This document shows, in pieces, positions 3,479 through 26,481 of a stretch of 26,981 bases of DNA (positions within the stretch are counted from its first letter, which is position 1; each line of letters begins with the position of its first letter). The position numbers and the translations under genes are program-made. Source of the DNA: a virus. Its lineage: Duplodnaviria; Heunggongvirae; Uroviricota; Caudoviricetes. The notes beneath the pieces are model-generated. The model was not told where the DNA came from. It made no database searches and saw nothing but the letters and a program-made list of their open reading frames with translations. The stretch lies in IMG/VR virus record IMGVR_UViG_3300006139_000005, positions 90,050 through 117,030 of that record, one strand, 5' to 3'.

Positions 3479-4282
3479 ATGAAGGGCTACGAGAATATCT
3501 CTCGCAACTACTTAACCCGCCGTGTACCAGTCATCATCCGTCTGGATGGTAAGGCGTTCCACACATTTACACGTGGTATGGAGAAACCTTTTGATTCCGT
3601 TCTTACACAGGCTATGCAGCAGACTATGAAATCTCTTTGCGAGAGCATTCAAGGCTGTGTCCTGGGCTACACACAATCAGACGAGATTACACTGGTGTTG
3701 ACCGACTATGCCACAATCAAGACGGACGCATGGTTCGGATATAACATTCAGAAGATGACAAGTATTGCTGCTTCCATGGCTACATTGGCGTTTGACCGTG
3801 AGTTCATCATTGCTTATGGGCAATGGTTTGACCGTAGCTTTGTGAATGGCGACTCTGATCTGCCCGGATTTTCAAAACTCGATGCGCTTTACGCCAGCAA
3901 ACGGCATCAGGCATTGTTCGACGCACGTGTTTTCTCTATCCCTAAAGAGGAAGTCTGTAATTGCCTGATCTGGCGACAGCAGGACGCAACTCGCAACAGC
4001 ATTGAGGCTGTTGGTCAAGCGTTCTTCTCTCAGAAAGAGCTACACAAGAAGAATTGTGATGAGATTCAAGAAATGCTCTGGTCGAAACACAATATCAACT
4101 GGAATAACTTCCCAACAGAAAACAAGCGTGGTTCGTGTTGTATCAAGCAGGAGATAGAAACTCCTATGGCCGATCCAAGAAATCCTGGTCAGACTGTTGT
4201 GGTTCGCCGTAGGAAATGGGTAATCGACACCGAAATTCCAATCTTTACGCAAGATAGGAATTATGTAGAGAGGTCGCTATAA
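3479..4282 (+). CDS. tRNA(His) guanylyltransferase Thg1-like protein (3'-5' polymerase)
   Basis: 'VIIRLDGKAFHTFT', 'YTQSDEITL', 'FDARVF', 'WRQQDATRNS'. The RBS-supported start at 3445 is out of frame because of an A7 run. Confidence 0.92.
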   Translation: MKGYENISRNYLTRRVPVIIRLDGKAFHTFTRGMEKPFDSVLTQAMQQTMKSLCESIQGCVLGYTQSDEITLVLTDYATIKTDAWFGYNIQKMTSIAASMATLAFDREFIIAYGQWFDRSFVNGDSDLPGFSKLDALYASKRHQALFDARVFSIPKEEVCNCLIWRQQDATRNSIEAVGQAFFSQKELHKKNCDEIQEMLWSKHNINWNNFPTENKRGSCCIKQEIETPMADPRNPGQTVVVRRRKWVIDTEIPIFTQDRNYVERSL

Positions 4283-5715
4283 TGGATGGCTTGCAAAATC
4301 TTTTTAGAGGCGGGATGCCAAATCCAACGCTTCAAAAAGATGCGATAGCGCAGATGCTTAAAATAAGTCCAGAGGCTCTTTCCAAATTTGAGGAATCGTA
4401 TAAAAGATATACCTTGGCCGAAGAGCCAGACGGATTCTTCCAGCAAAATTCTCGGCAGGCCGCAGAGCAAAACCATTTAATTGATATGGCGTCGAAATCA
4501 ACCCACGCTGATACAACAGCCTTGGAACGCCGTATCGTAGATGAGTTACTTTCTCAAACCACCACTTACTTTTTTGACGGGAATTTGGCTACCATTCAGA
4601 GCTATAAGGCTCTGCCGACTGGATCTGAACCTGTAACTCTCCAAGAAGTGACCAATCTCCCACCAGAAATACAACCTCAGCTTACCGGAACTTTGATGAA
4701 ACGTGATATTGGAGAAGAGTCCGGGCCAATACTTCTGTATCAGTATAAGGAGTATCTGGACAATCCGAACACAGTGAAAGGGCGGACATCGTATCATATG
4801 TTTCGACAAGGGCTGGACATCCTCGATCTTGATGGCCTGACTTATGAGATCATTGGCACGAACCCAAACTCAATGGGGCATTGGCTTCCTCAGCTTGTAG
4901 AGGCTTGTCGTGGCAAAGGATTCTTCAAGATCCCAGCAACAGCTATCACAAAAGTACCTATGACGCTTCTACAGCTAACCAGGCAGGAATATGGGATGCT
5001 GACACAAACAACGCTATCTGTTCTGGATAAATGGGCACATGAAGCATTTCGGCTTGATGATTCCAAGGAGTATTTTATTAAAACAGGAACTTATTCTTCA
5101 AAGTTCGATTTTCGCAATGCTCACGTCAAAGGTGCAAAAGAGGTTATGGAGCTGGGAGAGTATTTGCTCTTTATTCACTATCAGGCTCTTCAGATGGCAA
5201 GCCCACTATCTTCCCCGTGTATCTATGGAGCCTCTACCACAAATGAATGGGTTGTAAGAGAGTGGATTGAGGATGCGGAGAACAACCCGTGTATCTACAA
5301 AGGTTTGCCTCTTCGTACCGAATACCGCATCTTTATTGATTGTGACCAGAAAACCGTTATAGGCTACACTCCTTACTGGGAACCACAGACTATGAAGCAA
5401 CGCTTTGGTCACGAAGAAGATGCGAACTCACCTCATCAGATCCACGACTATATCATCTACAAAGCACATGAGGAAACTCTGATGCGGCGTTACTACGAGA
5501 ATATTGAACGGGTAAAAACGGCGGTCATAGACCTCCTACCTGACCTACACCTACACGGCCAGTGGTCACTGGATATTATGCAGAACGGAAATGACTTCTG
5601 GTTGATTGATATGGGTGTGGCTGAAAACTCCGCTTTCTATCGTGAGTGTGTACCAGAGTCCAGTCGTGTACCTACGCCAGAAAATTGGCTCCAGCAGCTA
5701 ACAGATGGTAGGTGA
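4282..5715 (+). CDS. CDC123/R2K-clade ATP-grasp protein
   Basis: 'YFIKTGTYSSKFDF', 'VVREWI', 'TEYRIFI', 'SLDIMQNGNDFWLIDM' resemble the CDC123 motifs FxK..s.KD, LRkW, EFRcFV, D...wLID. Confidence 0.7.
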   Translation: MDGLQNLFRGGMPNPTLQKDAIAQMLKISPEALSKFEESYKRYTLAEEPDGFFQQNSRQAAEQNHLIDMASKSTHADTTALERRIVDELLSQTTTYFFDGNLATIQSYKALPTGSEPVTLQEVTNLPPEIQPQLTGTLMKRDIGEESGPILLYQYKEYLDNPNTVKGRTSYHMFRQGLDILDLDGLTYEIIGTNPNSMGHWLPQLVEACRGKGFFKIPATAITKVPMTLLQLTRQEYGMLTQTTLSVLDKWAHEAFRLDDSKEYFIKTGTYSSKFDFRNAHVKGAKEVMELGEYLLFIHYQALQMASPLSSPCIYGASTTNEWVVREWIEDAENNPCIYKGLPLRTEYRIFIDCDQKTVIGYTPYWEPQTMKQRFGHEEDANSPHQIHDYIIYKAHEETLMRRYYENIERVKTAVIDLLPDLHLHGQWSLDIMQNGNDFWLIDMGVAENSAFYRECVPESSRVPTPENWLQQLTDGR

Positions 5716-6200: not shown

Positions 6201-6722
6201 ATGAAACTCGTAAACGCAAAGCTCTATGAGGAGCAGATAAAACGCAAGATGTGGGGAATCTGGTACGATGAAAAGTACCAATATTATTTCGGTGGTAACT
6301 ATCGTAGCGATTTCTCCCTTGCTGATAACACTGGCGATTATCAAAAGCGGTCATTCGCTGTGTTGAACAATAGCGATGAGCTGCTGGGGTATATCAGTTA
6401 CTCCGTGGACAATGAGTTGCAGATCGCTCAGTGGTTTGGAGCAGTCAATTTTTCCGATGACAAAGTATCTTTCGGCAAGGCACTAAGGCAGGTTGTCGAA
6501 GACTGCTTCCTGAAATTCGGCATGGAAGTGGTTGAGTGGTGTGTAGTCTGTGGCAATCCCATTGAGAGAAGTTACGATAGGATGTGTGAAAAGCTGGGCG
6601 GTCGCATTATTGGCATTAGACATCATCGTGCAAAGGACATGGCTGGAAATGTGCATGACGATAAAATGTATGAGATTCTGCGAGAAGATTTTTTGAGGGC
6701 AACCGCTCGAATGAAAGACTAA
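6201..6722 (+). CDS. GNAT family N-acetyltransferase (RimJ/RimL-like)
   Basis: 'LLGYISY', 'FGKAL..V.E..F.KFGME.V...V..GN', 'G..R....D..G..HD..YEILREDF' pattern. Confidence 0.7.
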   Translation: MKLVNAKLYEEQIKRKMWGIWYDEKYQYYFGGNYRSDFSLADNTGDYQKRSFAVLNNSDELLGYISYSVDNELQIAQWFGAVNFSDDKVSFGKALRQVVEDCFLKFGMEVVEWCVVCGNPIERSYDRMCEKLGGRIIGIRHHRAKDMAGNVHDDKMYEILREDFLRATARMKD

Positions 6723-6740
6723 TTTTATAGGAGGTATTGT

Positions 6741-6989
6741 ATGGCCGCAAATAAATGGATGATCGAGTCGTGGCTTAAACGTGAGAAAGCTGCGGAAAGC
6801 GACTATATGCTTGTGGTGTGCGACACATTTGACCATGAAGACTATCCTGTTTATGTGTCAAAAGAAGATCTTGAGAAAGCTATCCAGCAATACTCCAGTA
6901 ATATGCAAACCATAATGGAAATCTACAATTTGGCTCTTGACATAGATACTCAACTCGCAGAAAAAAGATCGTGGCATATTGAATGTTAA
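6741..6989 (+). CDS. Hypothetical phage protein
   Basis: AGGAGG ribosome-binding site, in-line ORF. Confidence 0.75.
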   Translation: MAANKWMIESWLKREKAAESDYMLVVCDTFDHEDYPVYVSKEDLEKAIQQYSSNMQTIMEIYNLALDIDTQLAEKRSWHIEC

Positions 6990-7202: not shown

Positions 7203-8180
7203 TTGATAGGAGTGATTGTAATAGAAATTGTTAGAACCCATACGGGAAAGATCTATGTTGACCGTGAGCGCAAACTGGAGTTCTTGACCGTAGGTGACTA
7301 TGGCAAGGAGAACAATATCAAAGCTGACTTCCTTGGCCTACACAAAGAAATCCATGGCGTGCAACATCACGATGTTGACCTGTCGCAAAAGTGGGTTGCT
7401 ACTATCAGCACGCAAAAAGGATGCCCTATGCGCTGTCAGTTCTGCGACTGTCCGAAGTTCGGCTTCCATGGTAATGTTTCCCACGATGAACTGGCGTATG
7501 AGATTGAAACCATACTCCAAAGTGAAAGCGTAAATGCTACTGATCGGTTCAATGTCCACTTTGCACGAATGGGTGAGCCAACCTGGAACAAGGATGTTTT
7601 GGCATTCGTTGCAGAAGATTTACGGAATTTGGTTGCAAAGTACATCACCGCCAAGACCATTCATCCCGTAGTTTCTACTATGCTTCCGAAAAATAACCGT
7701 GATCTGGTACGGTTCATCCAGGAGTGGTGCCGAATCAAAAATGAGGTATACGCTGGAGAAGCTGGTCTTCAGTTCAGTATCAACTCTACGGATGATGAGC
7801 AAAGAAATACCCAGTTCAACGGTATGAGTCTGAGTTTAACCGAAATCTCTGCATTGGCTCATAGTTTGCCAAAACCGATTGGCAGAAAGTACACATTGAA
7901 CTTTGCTGTAACCGCAGAAACAATTCTCGATGCCGATAAGCTGTCAGAGCTGTTCAGTAAAGAAGACTTTATTGTGAAAATTACTCCCATTCACAAAACC
8001 GAATCAGCTGTGAAAAACGGTTTCAATGTGACGACAGAGTACACAGACTACGATGTTTACCGTAAATTTGAGGCTCCACTTGTTGCTGCCGGATGGGATG
8101 TCATCGTTTTTGTTCCAAGCGAAGAAGAAGACAGCGACAGAATTACCTGCGGAAATGCACTAATCACAGATCAAGGGTAA
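7203..8180 (+). CDS. RlmN/Cfr-like radical SAM protein
   Basis: 'ISTQKGCPMRCQFC' (CxxxCxxC), 'RMGEP', 'LQFSINS', C-terminal 'ITCGN'; exact start uncertain. Confidence 0.85.
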   Translation: MIGVIVIEIVRTHTGKIYVDRERKLEFLTVGDYGKENNIKADFLGLHKEIHGVQHHDVDLSQKWVATISTQKGCPMRCQFCDCPKFGFHGNVSHDELAYEIETILQSESVNATDRFNVHFARMGEPTWNKDVLAFVAEDLRNLVAKYITAKTIHPVVSTMLPKNNRDLVRFIQEWCRIKNEVYAGEAGLQFSINSTDDEQRNTQFNGMSLSLTEISALAHSLPKPIGRKYTLNFAVTAETILDADKLSELFSKEDFIVKITPIHKTESAVKNGFNVTTEYTDYDVYRKFEAPLVAAGWDVIVFVPSEEEDSDRITCGNALITDQG

Positions 8181-8186
8181 AACAAA

Positions 8187-8211
8187 GCCTGCCCGCAATC
8201 AACGGGCAGGC
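8187..8211 (-). terminator. Intrinsic terminator between convergent genes
   Basis: GCCTGCCCG/CGGGCAGGC 9-bp stem followed by a T-rich tract on the minus strand. Confidence 0.75.
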
Positions 8212-8217
8212 CAAGGA

Positions 8218-8516: not shown

Positions 8517-8891
8517 ATGTTTCGAGTTATTATTGCTGGTGGCAGAGACTTTAACAACTATCCTGGTCTTGCCAAAGCTATGGATCAACTGCTTGCCAAT
8601 GTGACTGACGAAATTGTTGTAGTGTGCGGTATGGCTCAAGGTGCAGATCGGCTTGGAGAGCGTTATGGTAAGGAACGTGGATATTCCATCCGTTATTTTC
8701 CGGCGGACTGGGATAGCAAAGGCCGTGGTGCTGGCTTTATCCGAAATGAAGAGATGGCGAAGAACGCCGATGCTCTGGTAGCATTTTGGGACGGCCAAAG
8801 CCGAGGCACAAAGCACATGATTGAAACAGCGAAAAAGCACAAACTGGATATTCGTGTGAAACACTATAAAAGGAGGGAACAGCGTGCTTAA
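8517..8891 (+). CDS. SLOG family protein (DUF2493/YspA-like)
   Basis: 'IIAGGRDF', 'CGMAQGAD', 'FPADW', 'RNEEM', 'AFWDGQSRGT'. Confidence 0.88.
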   Translation: MFRVIIAGGRDFNNYPGLAKAMDQLLANVTDEIVVVCGMAQGADRLGERYGKERGYSIRYFPADWDSKGRGAGFIRNEEMAKNADALVAFWDGQSRGTKHMIETAKKHKLDIRVKHYKRREQRA

Positions 8892-12625: not shown

Positions 12626-13471
12626 ATGCCTCTTATTTTGAATGGCAACCACGTCGCATTATCTATCAAGAAAAAGATCAAGGAAACGATTGTAGAATCT
12701 GGTATACAGCCACGTTTGTCCGTTATTTTAATTGGGCACAACCAATCATCCAGAGTCTATGTTAGGAACAAAGCGAAAGATTGTGAGGAATGCGGAATTG
12801 ATAGTGTTACTTACGCACTCCCAGAAAACACAAGTGAAGAAAAGTTGATTAAGCTGATTCGCTCACTTTCTGATGACAGCAATGTGCATGGAATTTTAGT
12901 TCAACTTCCACTTCCAAAACATATCAATAAAGACCATATCATCTCTGAAATCAATCCTAAAAAAGATGTGGACGGATTTACAAAGGCAAATACTATGGCA
13001 ATGCTGGATGGAAAATTCCGATTTGTACCTTGTACTCCTGGAGGCATTATTGAGCTGATGAGGTTTTACAAAATACCAATCGTTGGACGGCATTGCGTTA
13101 TAGTTGGCCGCTCCGATATTGTTGGCAAACCAATGGCTACCATAGCACTTTGGAATAACGCCACAACAACTATCTGCCATTCGCACACCAGAAACCTTGG
13201 CGACATTTGTAAAAGCGCTGACATCCTAATAGCCGCCACTGGCAGAAGAAACCTTATCAAACCAGAGTTTATTAAGCCGGACACCACTATTATTGATGTT
13301 GGGATGAACCGTGATGACAACGGGAAATTGTGTGGTGACTGCGATCCTAATGCCTATGAAAAGAGTGCAGCATACACGCCAGTACCTGGTGGTGTCGGGC
13401 CGATGACTCGTGCAATGCTTCTACTGAATACAGCGGCGGCGGCTGGTCTAAATGTAAAATTGGGCTGGTGA
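12626..13471 (+). CDS. folD: Bifunctional methylenetetrahydrofolate dehydrogenase/cyclohydrolase
   Basis: 'VHGILVQLPLP', 'KDVDGF', 'PCTPGG', 'VIVGRSDIVGKP', 'TPVPGGVGPMT'. Confidence 0.96.
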   Translation: MPLILNGNHVALSIKKKIKETIVESGIQPRLSVILIGHNQSSRVYVRNKAKDCEECGIDSVTYALPENTSEEKLIKLIRSLSDDSNVHGILVQLPLPKHINKDHIISEINPKKDVDGFTKANTMAMLDGKFRFVPCTPGGIIELMRFYKIPIVGRHCVIVGRSDIVGKPMATIALWNNATTTICHSHTRNLGDICKSADILIAATGRRNLIKPEFIKPDTTIIDVGMNRDDNGKLCGDCDPNAYEKSAAYTPVPGGVGPMTRAMLLLNTAAAAGLNVKLGW

Positions 13472-15191: not shown

Positions 15192-15220
15192 TTGAGGTCA
15201 AATGCTCGGTGTGGTATAAT
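15192..15220 (+). promoter_or_regulatory. Candidate integrase promoter downstream of xis
   Basis: TTGAGG 15192-15197, 17 nt, TGgTATAAT extended -10 (TATAAT 15215-15220). Confidence 0.6.
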
Positions 15221-15266
15221 CCAAATACCACATCGAGTTTCTTCTTCAGGCAGAAAGGAGTTCACA

Positions 15267-16538
15267 ATGGCCTCGAAAAGAAGAGACTCGAAAGGCCGAC
15301 TTCTCAAAGTTGGCGAATCCCAACGAGCGGACGGGATGTATATGTACCGCTACAACGATGCTGGAGGGGTGAGACGGACTATTTACAGCTGGCGGTTAGT
15401 AGAAACCGACAAACTGCCAACAGGCAAAAAAGCTGGTGCGCCTTTACGTGATCTGGAAAAACAACTGACCCGTGATACAGATGATGGCATTGAAAGTTTC
15501 GTAGCCAGTAAGAAAACCTTGGATGACTTTTTCTACAAGTATATGGCTATGAAGAAAGAGTTGAAACCCACCACACGCTCTGGCTATTTCCAAGTCTACA
15601 AACACTACATCAAAGATGAACTTGGTATGCGTAGCATCAGTTCTATCAAGTATAGTGATATCAAGAAGTTTTACTTAGCGCTGTTCTATGAAAAGGGAAT
15701 GAAGCCAAACACAATCCACGCCGTCAATACCGTACTCCATCCTATTTTTACACTTGCAGTACGTGATGGTTATATTAGGGCGAATCCCGCATACCAAGTA
15801 TATGCCGAACTGAAAAAGCAAAACGCTTGGAGCCAGGATAAGCGCCATGCGCTGACCGAAGATGAACAGGAAGCGTTTGTAGATTTCATCCGAAATTCTC
15901 AGAAATACTCTGGTTTTCTCAACCTGTTTACTGTGTTTCTTGGGACTGGTTGCCGTGTAGGTGAAGTCATCGGACTTCGCTGGGACGACTGTGATTTCAC
16001 TGATAATCTCATTTCTATCAACCACAGCTTGGCCTTTTGTAAGCCTGAAAATGAGAAGAAAATGAGATTCCTTGTGTCCTCTCCGAAGACCGAAGCTGGT
16101 GAGCGGATAATCCCTATGCTGAAAGAAGTTAAGTCTGCTCTAATCTCTGAACGGCTTAGGCAGATGGCGGAGGGTTTCAACAAAAACGAAGTAGACGGAT
16201 ACTCTGGGTTCATTTTCCAGACGAAGCGTGGCAATCTGTATACCAGCGTAAGCATTAACCGTATCATCAACAACATCATCCGTGACTACAATGCCTCAGA
16301 GGAGCAGGCCGCTAAAAAGCAGAAGCGGAAGCCGCTCTTGCTCCCGCACTTCTCCGTTCATAATTTAAGGCACACGTTCTGCACTCGTTTCTGTGAGAAC
16401 GAAACCAATTTGAAGGTCATTCAAGAGATCATGGGACACGCCAATATCTCGACCACCATGGATATCTACAATGAAGCAACGATGGAGAAGAAAAAGGCCA
16501 GCTTTGCGAACCTTGAGGGCAAGATTAAGATTGGCTGA
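15267..16538 (+). CDS. int: Tyrosine integrase with a Tn916-type N-terminal arm-binding domain
   Basis: 'RRDSKGRLLKVGESQR.DG.Y.YRY', 'GTGCRVGE', 'PKT', 'HNLRHTFCT', 'IMGH', 'TTMDIY'; AAGGAG before ATG 15267. Confidence 0.95.
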   Translation: MASKRRDSKGRLLKVGESQRADGMYMYRYNDAGGVRRTIYSWRLVETDKLPTGKKAGAPLRDLEKQLTRDTDDGIESFVASKKTLDDFFYKYMAMKKELKPTTRSGYFQVYKHYIKDELGMRSISSIKYSDIKKFYLALFYEKGMKPNTIHAVNTVLHPIFTLAVRDGYIRANPAYQVYAELKKQNAWSQDKRHALTEDEQEAFVDFIRNSQKYSGFLNLFTVFLGTGCRVGEVIGLRWDDCDFTDNLISINHSLAFCKPENEKKMRFLVSSPKTEAGERIIPMLKEVKSALISERLRQMAEGFNKNEVDGYSGFIFQTKRGNLYTSVSINRIINNIIRDYNASEEQAAKKQKRKPLLLPHFSVHNLRHTFCTRFCENETNLKVIQEIMGHANISTTMDIYNEATMEKKKASFANLEGKIKIG

Positions 16539-20481: not shown

Positions 20482-21507
20482 TCACAGATCAGACAGGCTC
20501 GTTTGCTTTTGTCCGACAATCTCTCCATCTTGGAAATACTTCCCGATTTCCTCTTCATCATCAATATCCTTGTAGATCTCCACCATTTCCAGACTCTCCC
20601 AGCCGATGATAGTCTTGATTACAGAGTCTGGCAGGTTGGCCTTAGCCAGAGATGTAGTGAAGAAGTGTCGGAGGCTATGCCAATACACTGGGATATCCAA
20701 AATGTTAGAGAACGTCTCTGTCCAGCTATTCAGCGTTGAAATCGGGATTGGCTGAGTAGGATCATCTTTGTCTGGGAAAAGCCATTCACTATCAATACCA
20801 AGTTCCGCCCGTTTCTGCATCCATAGGTCGAAATACGGTTTGAACGGTTTAGAAAGCACATAACACGTCAACATCTTGCCATTTACGCCACGCCCTTTGG
20901 TCTTGATTTTTTCAGGCGTTTTATAAAGTGAGCCATAGATGATATTCTCATCGTCAAAATATGACACTTTGAACCTCGGCAACTCAGACTTGCGCCGTCC
21001 AGAATAGCGAGCCAGAGCAAAACAGCAGGCTTTCTCATATTGCTTGCGTCCAACCAAATACTCCAGCAGAGTATCCGCTTGTTCATCAGTTAGCACTGTT
21101 TTCTCTCTGGTTGGTTCATTGATTGGGTTTTCAATCTTCCGAACGATTGAACGGAATCCTGGAAGTTCATCATCCAAAATTGCCTCAATGTAATTGCTGA
21201 GAGAGGAAAGTGTTGCCTTCAGCCGGCGCACACGAGCCGGAGAGTTTTCATTGTCCCGCAACAACCAGTTTTGATAAGCGACAATATCTCGTTTGCTAAC
21301 CTCTGGAAAATATTTATTGTCAGCATTTTGAAGCACCCACACAAAGAAGATATAGAGATCGCTTGTGTAGGCTTTCACGGTAGACTCTGCTTTGCCAACC
21401 GACCTCAGATAGTCCAGAAAGTCATTCATCAGCCGAATGTTCTTCGGATTGATCTGGGCGATCAACTCAGGTGAGGTAATTTTGTTTTGCTTTGTTTTTC
21501 GTCCCAT
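20482..21507 (-). CDS. Second tyrosine recombinase (XerC/D-like)
   Basis: 'YSGRRKSEL', 'HSLRHFF', 'IIGW', 'IY'; no arm-binding domain. Confidence 0.92.
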   Translation of the reverse strand: MGRKTKQNKITSPELIAQINPKNIRLMNDFLDYLRSVGKAESTVKAYTSDLYIFFVWVLQNADNKYFPEVSKRDIVAYQNWLLRDNENSPARVRRLKATLSSLSNYIEAILDDELPGFRSIVRKIENPINEPTREKTVLTDEQADTLLEYLVGRKQYEKACCFALARYSGRRKSELPRFKVSYFDDENIIYGSLYKTPEKIKTKGRGVNGKMLTCYVLSKPFKPYFDLWMQKRAELGIDSEWLFPDKDDPTQPIPISTLNSWTETFSNILDIPVYWHSLRHFFTTSLAKANLPDSVIKTIIGWESLEMVEIYKDIDDEEEIGKYFQDGEIVGQKQTSLSDL

Positions 21508-24463: not shown

Positions 24464-25639
24464 TTAGGCTGTCTGTTTAAGCAACTTCTGTTGCTCTTGC
24501 TGCCTGTACTTGTTAAACAGGGCATAATGTAGCCTCCGCAACCGAAGAAGCCGCCCATGGTCGTTGTAGTTTCGGTAATACGCCGTTTGACACTCCATGA
24601 ATTGGTCGATATCGGCAAGTGTACGCTTACCGTCCAAATATTCACGATGGAACAGTTTTAGCTTGCGTCTTGCACTCTTCATTCCGCCACGATTGCCATT
24701 CACCTTAATTCTGCCAGTCTCTGTCAAAGTAAACCTTGCCTTACAGAAGCGGAATCCTTTAGAGCTGGAGAGAGGAACGATTTTGCATTTTCGCCGGTTG
24801 ACACGAATACCATAGGACTCCATCATTGCCACGATCTCACGAGCAATCTTCTTCAGCTCCTCAATATCGGGGAGAATGATGTAATAGTCATCCATGTAAT
24901 GACCAGCACAATGTATCCCCAGCTGGCATTTGATGTAGTTATCAATAGCACTGGGAAGCGCAACCATTTCCTGTTGACTTGGCTCCACACCGAGCGGCAT
25001 ACCACGACCAGGCGCTGTAGCTGGTGCCGTTCTGACAATGTAATCCGCAAACGCCCGAACTTCTGGGTTCAACATCACTTTACTATGCCGCTGGTATATT
25101 AGCTGACGGTTAGCATTTGGGAAGAACTTCTTCAAGTCCATAAGAAACACTGCACCATCACGCCCGTACCGTCGATAGTGCCATGCCAGTTGTTCTTTAA
25201 GCCGCCGAAATTGCCAATGTAATCCCTTATTCTTCTGACTGGCCGCATTGTCGATTATCATGCTGGGTTCATACAATGGAATAAGAATTTTGTTGCACTC
25301 CACCTTTTGAACCTGTCGATCAACAATGTGCGGAGCATCAATAGGACGTACTTTCCCTCGCTCATGAAGTGTAAAATGAGAACACGGTTGTGGCTTCCAC
25401 ATTCCACTGACCACCATTTGACGCCTCTTAGCAGTACCAGAAAGCAGATGCAGTTCAAAGTTCTGGGTGCTTTGTTTCCAACGCACACCCTTACAGCACT
25501 CTTTACCGAAAAAGAACATATCGTGAAAATTGTAAATTTTGTCGAGTGATCCTACCTCGTCACTCCGTTTTTGCCTATTGGCCTGTCGCCGCGCTTGGCG
25601 GCGTTGGTAACGCGCCTCTCGGCGCTCTTCACTTGTCAT
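24464..25639 (-). CDS. DGR reverse transcriptase
   Basis: 'HERGKVRPI', 'DRQVQ', 'MDLKKFF', 'GMPLGVEPSQ' (GxxxSQ DGR signature), 'YMDD'; GGAGG upstream of ATG 25639. Confidence 0.96.
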   Translation of the reverse strand: MTSEERREARYQRRQARRQANRQKRSDEVGSLDKIYNFHDMFFFGKECCKGVRWKQSTQNFELHLLSGTAKRRQMVVSGMWKPQPCSHFTLHERGKVRPIDAPHIVDRQVQKVECNKILIPLYEPSMIIDNAASQKNKGLHWQFRRLKEQLAWHYRRYGRDGAVFLMDLKKFFPNANRQLIYQRHSKVMLNPEVRAFADYIVRTAPATAPGRGMPLGVEPSQQEMVALPSAIDNYIKCQLGIHCAGHYMDDYYIILPDIEELKKIAREIVAMMESYGIRVNRRKCKIVPLSSSKGFRFCKARFTLTETGRIKVNGNRGGMKSARRKLKLFHREYLDGKRTLADIDQFMECQTAYYRNYNDHGRLLRLRRLHYALFNKYRQQEQQKLLKQTA

Positions 25640-25854
25640 AATTTTATTCGCCCTCCGCATAGATGTCTTGTAGGTGCGTGTCTAATACTACGTTGACCAT
25701 ACACATGAAACGAGGTAAACGCAATCCCCCGCCATGCAAGCAGCGTCCGTGCATGGTCGTCAAAGGGCAGTTTTAGGCTTTCACCAGGGAAGTATTTCTC
25801 CTTTTGCAAAGGTCGTCCTTCGCCGAAGCTACTACCATTCGACCTCGCACATTG

Positions 25855-25979
25855 CAAAATCCGGGGCGCACACCCGCCGACCAGGAAGCATTGTTGTTGT
25901 TGATGTTGCCGTTGTTGTTCACATTACAGAAATTGTTGTTGTTGTTGTAATAGGGGGAACGCAACCACCACCACACAGC
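25855..25979 (-). repeat. DGR template repeat (TR)
   Basis: Reads AVWWWLRSPYYNNNNNFCNVNNNGNINNNNASWSAGVRPGF with 14 AAY codons; 25857-25913 aligns with 26925-26981. Confidence 0.95.
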
Positions 25980-26016
25980 AGTGTGACTCATTTACAGAAA
26001 TACACCCATAGACCGA

Positions 26017-26481
26017 TTACTGCTTTTTAGTTTGTGCCAGTGCCTTAGTAACACCTCTGAGAAGTTCATCTTCCTTGTCGATCAGCAGCCCTAAACTTTC
26101 CGCCATACGATCAAGTTTCTCAATCGCATCCACAGATTTCAACTGAACACCTTTACTATTTGTAAAGCATCCTTCTGGGTTCTGCATCATAAGAAGATAG
26201 CAATGCGTAAGCCGCACATCCAAGGCTTTCAAAGAAGCCCTTGCTTCCAGCAGGTGTGCCTTGCGCAATGTCTTTCTCTGGTCGTCTGAGGGGTAGATAC
26301 TGTTTGCCATTTCAGCTTGATCCACCACTCCACCGGCCAGATGTGCGATATCCTCAGCAATCAATCTGGAATATCTTGCAGACAGCCTTGTAAGAAAATT
26401 TAGCGTTTCCACATAAAGTTGGTTTGCCGTATTGACAAACTCCGCCTTGCTTGTGGTACGCTTTGCTTTAAGTACCGACAC
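26017..26481 (-). CDS. avd: DGR accessory variability determinant (Avd-like four-helix bundle)
   Basis: 'MSVLKAKR..SKAEF', helical, 154 aa; canonical position upstream of TR and RT. Confidence 0.8.
   Translation of the reverse strand: MSVLKAKRTTSKAEFVNTANQLYVETLNFLTRLSARYSRLIAEDIAHLAGGVVDQAEMANSIYPSDDQRKTLRKAHLLEARASLKALDVRLTHCYLLMMQNPEGCFTNSKGVQLKSVDAIEKLDRMAESLGLLIDKEDELLRGVTKALAQTKKQ

Follow-up and report, generated by a model that had tools for sequence, protein, structure and literature searches.

The window analysed here, a stretch of 26,981 nucleotides, spans the final 27 kb of an IMG/VR virus record 117 kb long (IMGVR_UViG_3300006139_000005). An open reading frame on the plus strand (7203-8180) encodes a radical SAM enzyme resembling RlmN and Cfr with only one of their two catalytic cysteines, 325 residues long from a TTG codon and 319 residues long from the start position used by the family; residues are numbered from 7203. 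The gene is the final one of a plus-strand run and ends at an 11-bp GC-rich hairpin (8186-8212) common to it and a convergent gene of 68 amino acids, the hairpin being terminator-like on the minus strand. The 20 tRNA genes of the 117-kb record are all located elsewhere than in the window. Since the nearest cellular copy (82% identical) is found in an Oscillospiraceae assembly, the host is likely a gut clostridial bacterium. A Shine-Dalgarno-like AGGAG (7208-7212, plus strand) is followed 8 nt later by the family start position (7221-7223), which is ATG in a near-identical variant (L376:1502-1504) and in most homologues and ATA here. The ATA form of the gene is recorded on 96 contigs (P0005) and is therefore not a one-off error. 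Translation of the phage allele may begin at ATA 7221, GTG 7212 or TTG 7203, perhaps weakly, and the ATA may reduce expression.

The gene occupies a swappable slot (7206-8208). A complete phage that is 94-97% identical on both flanks matches the window to position 7205 and again from 8209, with an unrelated 140-aa ORF in between (L229:9943-10365; no match with PADLOC) and no homologue of the enzyme elsewhere in its genome. The neighbours of the enzyme gene in the window are small phage ORFs, with no hydrolase or flavoprotein adjacent. A gene for a Thg1-like tRNA-His guanylyltransferase lies 3 kb upstream, followed by a 477-aa ORF (phrog_12834; together 3479-5715), and the enzyme is found near Thg1 in 19 of 54 Thg1 loci, mostly from one related phage group. 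A YspA-type SLOG gene (PF10686) is located at 8517-8891 and is interrupted by a stop in L377. A module formed with the Thg1, ATP-grasp-like or SLOG neighbours was considered and rejected, as the gene is swapped out alone in the close relative and the neighbours differ. Further ORFs of the window, assigned by eye, encode a FolD-like methylene-THF dehydrogenase (12626-13471), present in only four related viral loci, and two tyrosine-recombinase-like proteins on opposite strands (15192-16538 and 20482-21507). A putative diversity-generating retroelement, also recognized by eye, is located on the minus strand at 24464-26481 and comprises a reverse transcriptase (24464-25660), an AAC-rich template-like stretch (approximately 25773-25991) and an Avd-like ORF (26017-26481).

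RlmN is the C2-methylase of A2503 in 23S rRNA and of A37 in tRNA (TIGR00048; PDB 3rfa, 5hr6, 5hr7, 6fz6) and Cfr is the C8-methylase of 23S rRNA A2503 (TIGR04432, NF000424; PDB 9p0p). A by-eye comparison in the sequence-only reading had placed a threonine at the position of RlmN Cys118 and had found the methyl-carrier Cys355 retained. Both assignments were upheld when a profile of 90 homologues was aligned to E. coli RlmN (probability 99.0, E 7e-18, gap-free around the key motifs). The alignment equates C118 with T67 (7401-7403), seven residues before C74; the cluster ligands C125, C129 and C132 with C74, C78 and C81; G177 with R122; E180 with E125; and C355 with C316 (8148-8150). A search of the PDB with the family profile placed RlmN and Cfr in an identical register (E 6e-21 to 9e-19), and no other cysteine of the phage enzyme aligns at the C118 position. 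The cluster motif C74-x3-C78-x2-C81 is followed by a conserved D82 and by the non-conserved C83, the extra cysteine noticed earlier (C74 to C83, 7422-7451). The ARMGEP motif (A121-P126, 7563-7580) carries an invariant arginine, R122, in place of RlmN G177 and A121 in place of M176. K259 (7977-7979) occupies the position of RlmN N307, is 96-100% conserved and is a candidate substrate-binding residue or replacement base. E26 (7278-7280) is 100% conserved and lies, in the structure model, in the strand that matches RlmN Glu105 and Cfr Glu91; the sequence alignments did not extend to this residue, and its probable equivalence to Glu105, which activates the methyl-carrier cysteine in RlmN, is drawn from strand order and aligned ranges. 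All of these features are on the plus strand.

The AlphaFold model of the enzyme (pLDDT 91.6) is consistent with the sequence alignments. RlmN was the nearest structure in Foldseek, and superposition on RlmN (5hr6) with VIA-align gave Z 25.6 and an rmsd of 2.8 Å over 263 residues, with the next unrelated family at Z 14. The partial TIM-barrel fold of radical SAM enzymes and the SAM-binding motifs are present in the model, with F80, E125, S158 and S192 identified as SAM-binding residues by sequence and model together. Since the structural alignment covers RlmN residues 81-363 only, the N-terminal helical domain of RlmN is absent from the phage enzyme; the cluster motif has 53-67 residues before it versus 124 in RlmN. 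The protein is acidic, with a pI of 5.4 and a net charge of -12. The residues that correspond to RlmN M176, K305 and R344 are not retained, and RlmN G177, A231, E278 and N307 are replaced by the invariant R122, Q190, N233 and K259. The residues essential in Cfr that have equivalents here are C112, C116, C119, F118, S189, S212, C338 and probably E91; those without an equivalent are C105 and the N-terminal R25 and Q28 (essential residues from PMC2836569). The radical SAM profile PF04055 scored 27.3 bits (E 4.9e-06) versus a gathering score of 29.5, and the cut-offs of the curated models were not reached (TIGR00048, 33.3 vs 290; TIGR04432, 27.5 vs 550; NF000424, 29.8 vs 530). PHROG 24834 was matched over the full length (residues 12-322, E 7.6e-103).

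The homologue search yielded 7076 matches among 8000 candidates, the weak tail of which may include RlmN proper; the best 120 are 75-100% identical, and 445 viral stretches carry homologues. Conservation was evaluated with 570 distinct homologues, 508 of which cover the stretch equivalent to C118. None of the 508 has cysteine at position 67, which answers the concern that relatives might mostly retain it. The residue is threonine in 92% of the phage and gut clade and isoleucine, methionine, leucine or valine in the cellular clade; such variability indicates that position 67 is not catalytic. C83 is cysteine in 70% and valine in 27% of the phage and gut clade and alanine in 93% of the cellular clade. 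Thus, the extra cysteine after the cluster is real, and because it is not conserved a role for it as the substitute resolving residue was rejected. The cluster cysteines C74, C78 and C81 are 98-100% conserved, as are C316 and the adjoining G317. Comparison with three homologues gave a dN of 0.09-0.11, with dS at 3.5 or saturated. These results, together with the absence of cysteine from every homologue at position 67, indicate that loss of the second cysteine is not decay. The further residues conserved at 95-100% are E26, K63, S69, D82, R122, T159, Q190, S192, K229, N233, K259, T261, P262, T266 and E309; among them, the newly invariant K63, D82, R122, Q190, K229, N233, K259 and E309 suggest a rebuilt pocket. 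A sister clade approximately 30% identical to the phage enzyme is distributed among Thermotoga, Thermoplasmata, Brocadiia, Cloacimonetes and Micrarchaeota. Members of the family are often annotated as 23S rRNA methyltransferases, and no description of a one-cysteine family was found in a literature search that ran mostly outside subscription journals.

Nine longer homologues (P0398, P0399, P0401-P0403, P0410, P0417, P0421 and P0423) contain LAGLIDADG inteins at the third cluster cysteine; inteins are a common trait of phage genes of nucleotide metabolism. The gene is split in Moorella phage MTATph1, where the carrier cysteine is encoded on a separate downstream peptide of 40 residues (L007:6673-6795), and in Vibrio phage D479, where a short downstream peptide has two tandem copies of the carrier cysteine (L003, approximately 6700-6925). 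The carrier cysteine is therefore retained even when detached from the body of the enzyme. No carrier cysteine could be located in the next ORF of Yersinia phage P778. Both cysteines are kept, and the N-terminal domain is missing, in RlmN-like proteins of Salmonella phage Arash and Stenotrophomonas phage ANB28 (L004:5878-6807 and L006:5881-6840), the gene of the latter lying among tRNA genes.

The carrier cysteine of RlmN and Cfr (C355 in RlmN) receives its methyl group from the first SAM, and the second yields a radical that generates a methylene radical on the methylcysteine, which then adds to the adenine (PMC9692996; bioRxiv 10.64898/2026.02.27.707579). C118 of RlmN serves as the general base that takes the ring proton, upon which the C-S bond fragments, and without it the crosslink between enzyme and RNA persists (PMC9692996; bioRxiv 10.64898/2026.02.27.707579). 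The variants C118A of RlmN and C105A of Cfr accumulate crosslinks, and C105A disturbs 70S assembly (PMC9692996; bioRxiv 10.64898/2026.02.27.707579; PMC2836569). The N-terminal R25 and Q28 of Cfr are implicated in RNA binding (PMC2836569).

The genomic context of the family in cells is metabolic. In the sister clade, a cysteine hydrolase, a TrxB-like flavoprotein lacking the CxxC motif and the enzyme form a trio on all four long contigs examined, which represent four phyla (Thermotoga, Thermoplasmata, Brocadiia and Micrarchaeota); the flavoprotein adjoins the enzyme on four more contigs, and both partners also occur as fusions. The hydrolase retains the Asp-Lys-Cys triad, lacks the metal motifs of nicotinamidase and has the isochorismatase EntB as its nearest relative in the PDB. 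Identification of the fused or adjacent hydrolase as a canonical nicotinamidase was not supported. In Bacillota the enzyme is fused to a QueT-like transporter and to an MTA/SAH nucleosidase. Such a nucleosidase clears both by-products expected of the reaction, SAH and 5'-deoxyadenosine.

Copies 73-76% identical to the phage protein are located inside NAD-salvage operons of Enterousia-type Alphaproteobacteria (pncB-pncA-nadE-nrtR holding the enzyme gene), of Bacilli (pncA-pncB-nadE-nadD-pncC-nrtR-nadK holding the enzyme gene) and on further metagenome contigs. The gene is sporadic in the orders concerned, occurring in 4 of 201 and 5 of 301 genomes, and a separate canonical RlmN was found in five of five cellular genomes tested. 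Descent of six NAD-operon copies as one clade was rejected (p-AU 1.5e-7); in quick trees of the family most of these copies group together with weak support and could stem from a small number of events. Two NAD-operon copies are apparently truncated or broken (L129:6001-6843 and L142:3413-4367, with ORFs of 298 and 156 aa). A DUF5662 gene is present in the Enterousia-type operon (L093:7735-8232 and relatives) and also in Moorella phage MTATph1. The 4.19 Mb of loci searched contain 12 copies of a 25-bp palindrome (TGTTAWTA-N9-WAWTAACA). Seven lie upstream of NAD operons that hold the enzyme gene and five upstream of pairs of a prephenate-dehydratase-like gene and the enzyme gene, within 6 kb of which no NAD gene was detected; shuffled sequences contained none (0/2000 each). 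From its position the palindrome is probably an NrtR site. It does not fit the GT-N7-AC core described in the literature for the majority of NrtR sites (PMC2330246).

The neighbours of the enzyme gene are not fixed in phages. Homologues adjoin nampt-nadE or pnuC in two phages. NAD genes within 6 kb were not enriched (2 of 80 viral enzyme loci; two control genes, 3 of 54 and 8 of 80), and genome-wide the NAPRTase family was in no excess, being present in 12 of 50 carrier genomes and 15 of 49 controls. A link to NAD at the level of phages is thus not supported, and the phage studied here has no detectable NAD-salvage gene and no copy of the 25-bp palindrome. Since the link in phages is not above background, the NAD reading relies on the operons of bacteria and on the palindrome that they share with the stand-alone copies. 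An association with DNA methyltransferases was also considered, a C5 methylase being encoded at most 6 kb away in 16 of 85 lineages versus 3 of 54 controls, and was dropped because there was no excess within 2 kb and 15 families had been compared. Among 25 near-complete carrier phages nine have no tRNA gene, which weakens a role on phage tRNAs and led to rejection of these tRNAs as the obligate substrate.

The kept and lost residues and the acidic pI suggest that the first half-reaction of RlmN is intact, that the pocket is rebuilt and that the substrate is no large RNA. We tentatively class the protein as a functional class A-type radical SAM enzyme in which the first half of the RlmN reaction is kept and the second half and the substrate are changed, an assignment held with less than even confidence. 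The family-wide loss of the cysteine, the absence of the N-terminal domain and partner genes that encode small-molecule enzymes and transporters all argue for different chemistry or a different substrate, an option that the sequence-only reading had offered beside a different resolving residue and a covalent crosslink; an RNA or DNA target is less likely than a metabolite. To our knowledge, RNA adenosines are the only substrates of class A radical SAM methylases. The reading that we favour, also short of even probability, is a two-SAM methylcysteine relay acting on a small heterocycle related to NAD or niacin with no requirement for a cysteine base. The first SAM would methylate C316, aided by E26, and leave as SAH; cleavage of the second would yield the 5'-deoxyadenosyl radical and from it a methylene radical on methyl-C316. 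This radical would add to a small electron-poor N-heterocycle tied to NAD or niacin salvage, for which a nucleotide or derivative of nicotinamide or nicotinate and the adenine moiety of a nucleotide of the NAD type are candidates. Inasmuch as C118 acts as general base in RlmN, a more acidic adduct could dispense with it: a pyridinium-type radical adduct might be resolved by loss of its proton to water or to K259 or E309, or might break down by some other fragmentation. A resolving residue other than cysteine is possible, with the invariant K259, K63 and E309 as candidates. Electrons could reach the enzymes of the cellular clade from their dedicated CxxC-less flavoprotein and the phage enzyme from a host flavodoxin or ferredoxin. 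In this phage the gene would be a stand-alone accessory function working on the host metabolite pool. The direction may be either C-methylation or salvage of a methylated precursor. The most specific form of the proposal is doubtful: a one-cysteine branch of class A that, with no resolving cysteine to help, adds or removes a carbon on a heterocycle of the NAD pathway. This would be a so far undescribed step of NAD or niacin metabolism in anaerobes, taken over by gut phages to shield or modify the NAD pool of the infected host.

A substrate unrelated to NAD is the foremost alternative, though rather unlikely. The same methylcysteine relay would then act on another small molecule, such as an imported nucleoside or base (a purine or deazapurine) or a chorismate-derived or carboxylated compound, and loss of CO2 or cyclization may replace loss of the proton. 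The fusion of a QueT-like transporter and a nucleosidase, the affinity of the trio hydrolase to EntB, the prephenate-dehydratase-like neighbour, the inteins in the cluster motif and the lack of NAD enrichment in phages are all consistent with such a substrate; however, it leaves unexplained both the repeated placement in NAD-salvage operons and the palindrome shared with the stand-alone copies.

An RNA C-methylase acting on tRNA or rRNA of host or phage, with Lys259, Lys63 or Glu309 as base and RNA bound without the N-terminal domain, appears decidedly unlikely. The nearest folds are those of RlmN and Cfr, the phage has 20 tRNA genes and a Thg1 gene upstream, phage RlmN-like proteins can lack the N-terminal domain while keeping both cysteines, and the positions of RlmN R114 and R274 remain basic (K63 and K229). 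Against these points, C118 or its counterpart is indispensable in both known enzymes (PMC9692996; PMC2836569), the RlmN K305, R344 and M176 positions are not kept in what is an acidic protein, more than a third of the near-complete carriers (9 of 25) lack tRNA genes, the cellular genomes tested have a canonical RlmN of their own, and the partner genes of the enzyme belong to metabolism.

The covalent crosslink raised by the sequence-only reading would make the adduct the product, with the enzyme a single-turnover trap in which C316 is methylene-bridged to RNA, a nucleotide or a defence protein. The crosslinks accumulated by the C118A and C105A variants are in keeping with such a trap, as is the detachable carrier peptide of MTATph1 and D479, duplicated in the latter, which would suit a consumable carrier. 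The split carrier could, however, belong to just a two-piece enzyme, the RNA-binding domain is absent, and the fact that bacteria and archaea keep the gene in metabolic operons, alongside genes for a reductase and a hydrolase, suggests turnover. Since bacteria hold the gene inside housekeeping NAD operons, a deliberate crosslink is ranked lower and is considered quite improbable.

Still less probable is a mechanism in which C316 takes no part in a SAM-methyl relay, and either accepts a methyl group from an N-methylated substrate such as N-methylnicotinamide or trigonelline, with regeneration by radical oxidation to formaldehyde, or serves as a thiyl or hydrogen-atom relay. A single cysteine would suffice, and both the hydrolase partner and a niacin-salvage regulon in gut auxotrophs would fit; no precedent was found in the literature, however, and the nucleosidase fusion fits release of SAH equally well. 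A degenerate, inactive copy of RlmN, for which the ATA codon and the dispensability of the slot in the close relative could be cited, is contradicted at the family level by the conservation pattern, the dN and dS values, 70-87% identity across many unrelated phages and the inteins retained in the cluster motif, and is very improbable, with weak expression of this one allele possible.

In thousands of sequences one cysteine is retained, the other is lost and the pocket is rebuilt; the resolution step must differ and the substrate is probably small. The family is thus a ready test of the necessity of a cysteine base and is likely to yield new radical chemistry. The enzyme is a small soluble protein, and a thermostable form is available from Thermotoga together with its partners. 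The link to NAD, if true, would reveal an unknown step in a pathway that has been studied in depth and, in the enzyme, a candidate means by which phages contend with host defences over NAD.

Comparison with known systems places the enzyme beside RlmN and Cfr and within neither. With RlmN (17-20% identity) it shares the fold of the beta-extension, radical SAM core and C-terminal cysteine loop (Z 25.6), the cluster motif, MGEP, the equivalents of S211, S233 and F131, the carrier Cys355 and probably Glu105. It differs from RlmN in lacking Cys118 and the N-terminal helical domain, in an insert of approximately 30 residues ahead of the first core strand and in the replacements G177 to R, M176 to A, A231 to Q, E278 to N, N307 to K and R344 to F. 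The fold of Cfr is shared (Z 17.7), as are the equivalents of its C112, C116, C119, F118, S189, S212, C338 and probably E91; unlike Cfr, the phage enzyme has no C105 and no N-terminal domain with R25 and Q28, scores 27-30 bits versus cut-offs of 530-550 and gives no sign of a role in antibiotic resistance. The one-cysteine arrangement is shared with the C118A variant of RlmN and the C105A variant of Cfr (PDB 4pl1, 5hr6), which have alanine where the phage enzyme has threonine; whereas those are stalled mutants, the loss in the phage family is natural, universal and accompanied by a newly conserved pocket. The cellular trio enzymes, uncharacterized like PHROG 24834, are 30% identical and have the same invariant residues, although the phage enzyme stands alone with neither hydrolase nor flavoprotein neighbours. 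With NAD salvage (Nampt/PncB, PncA, NadD, NadE and the NrtR regulons, PMC2330246) the family shares placement of homologues in operons of gut bacteria and next to nampt-nadE or pnuC in two phages; no radical SAM step is described for these pathways in the literature searched. The definition of class A includes a second conserved cysteine (C118 or C105) that resolves the adduct (PMC9692996). Since two defining features, this cysteine and the N-terminal domain, fail in the phage enzyme, it should be assigned to neither RlmN nor Cfr. Overall, the alignments and conservation indicate that it is a member of a large, uncharacterized one-cysteine family predicted to work like the first half of RlmN and Cfr.
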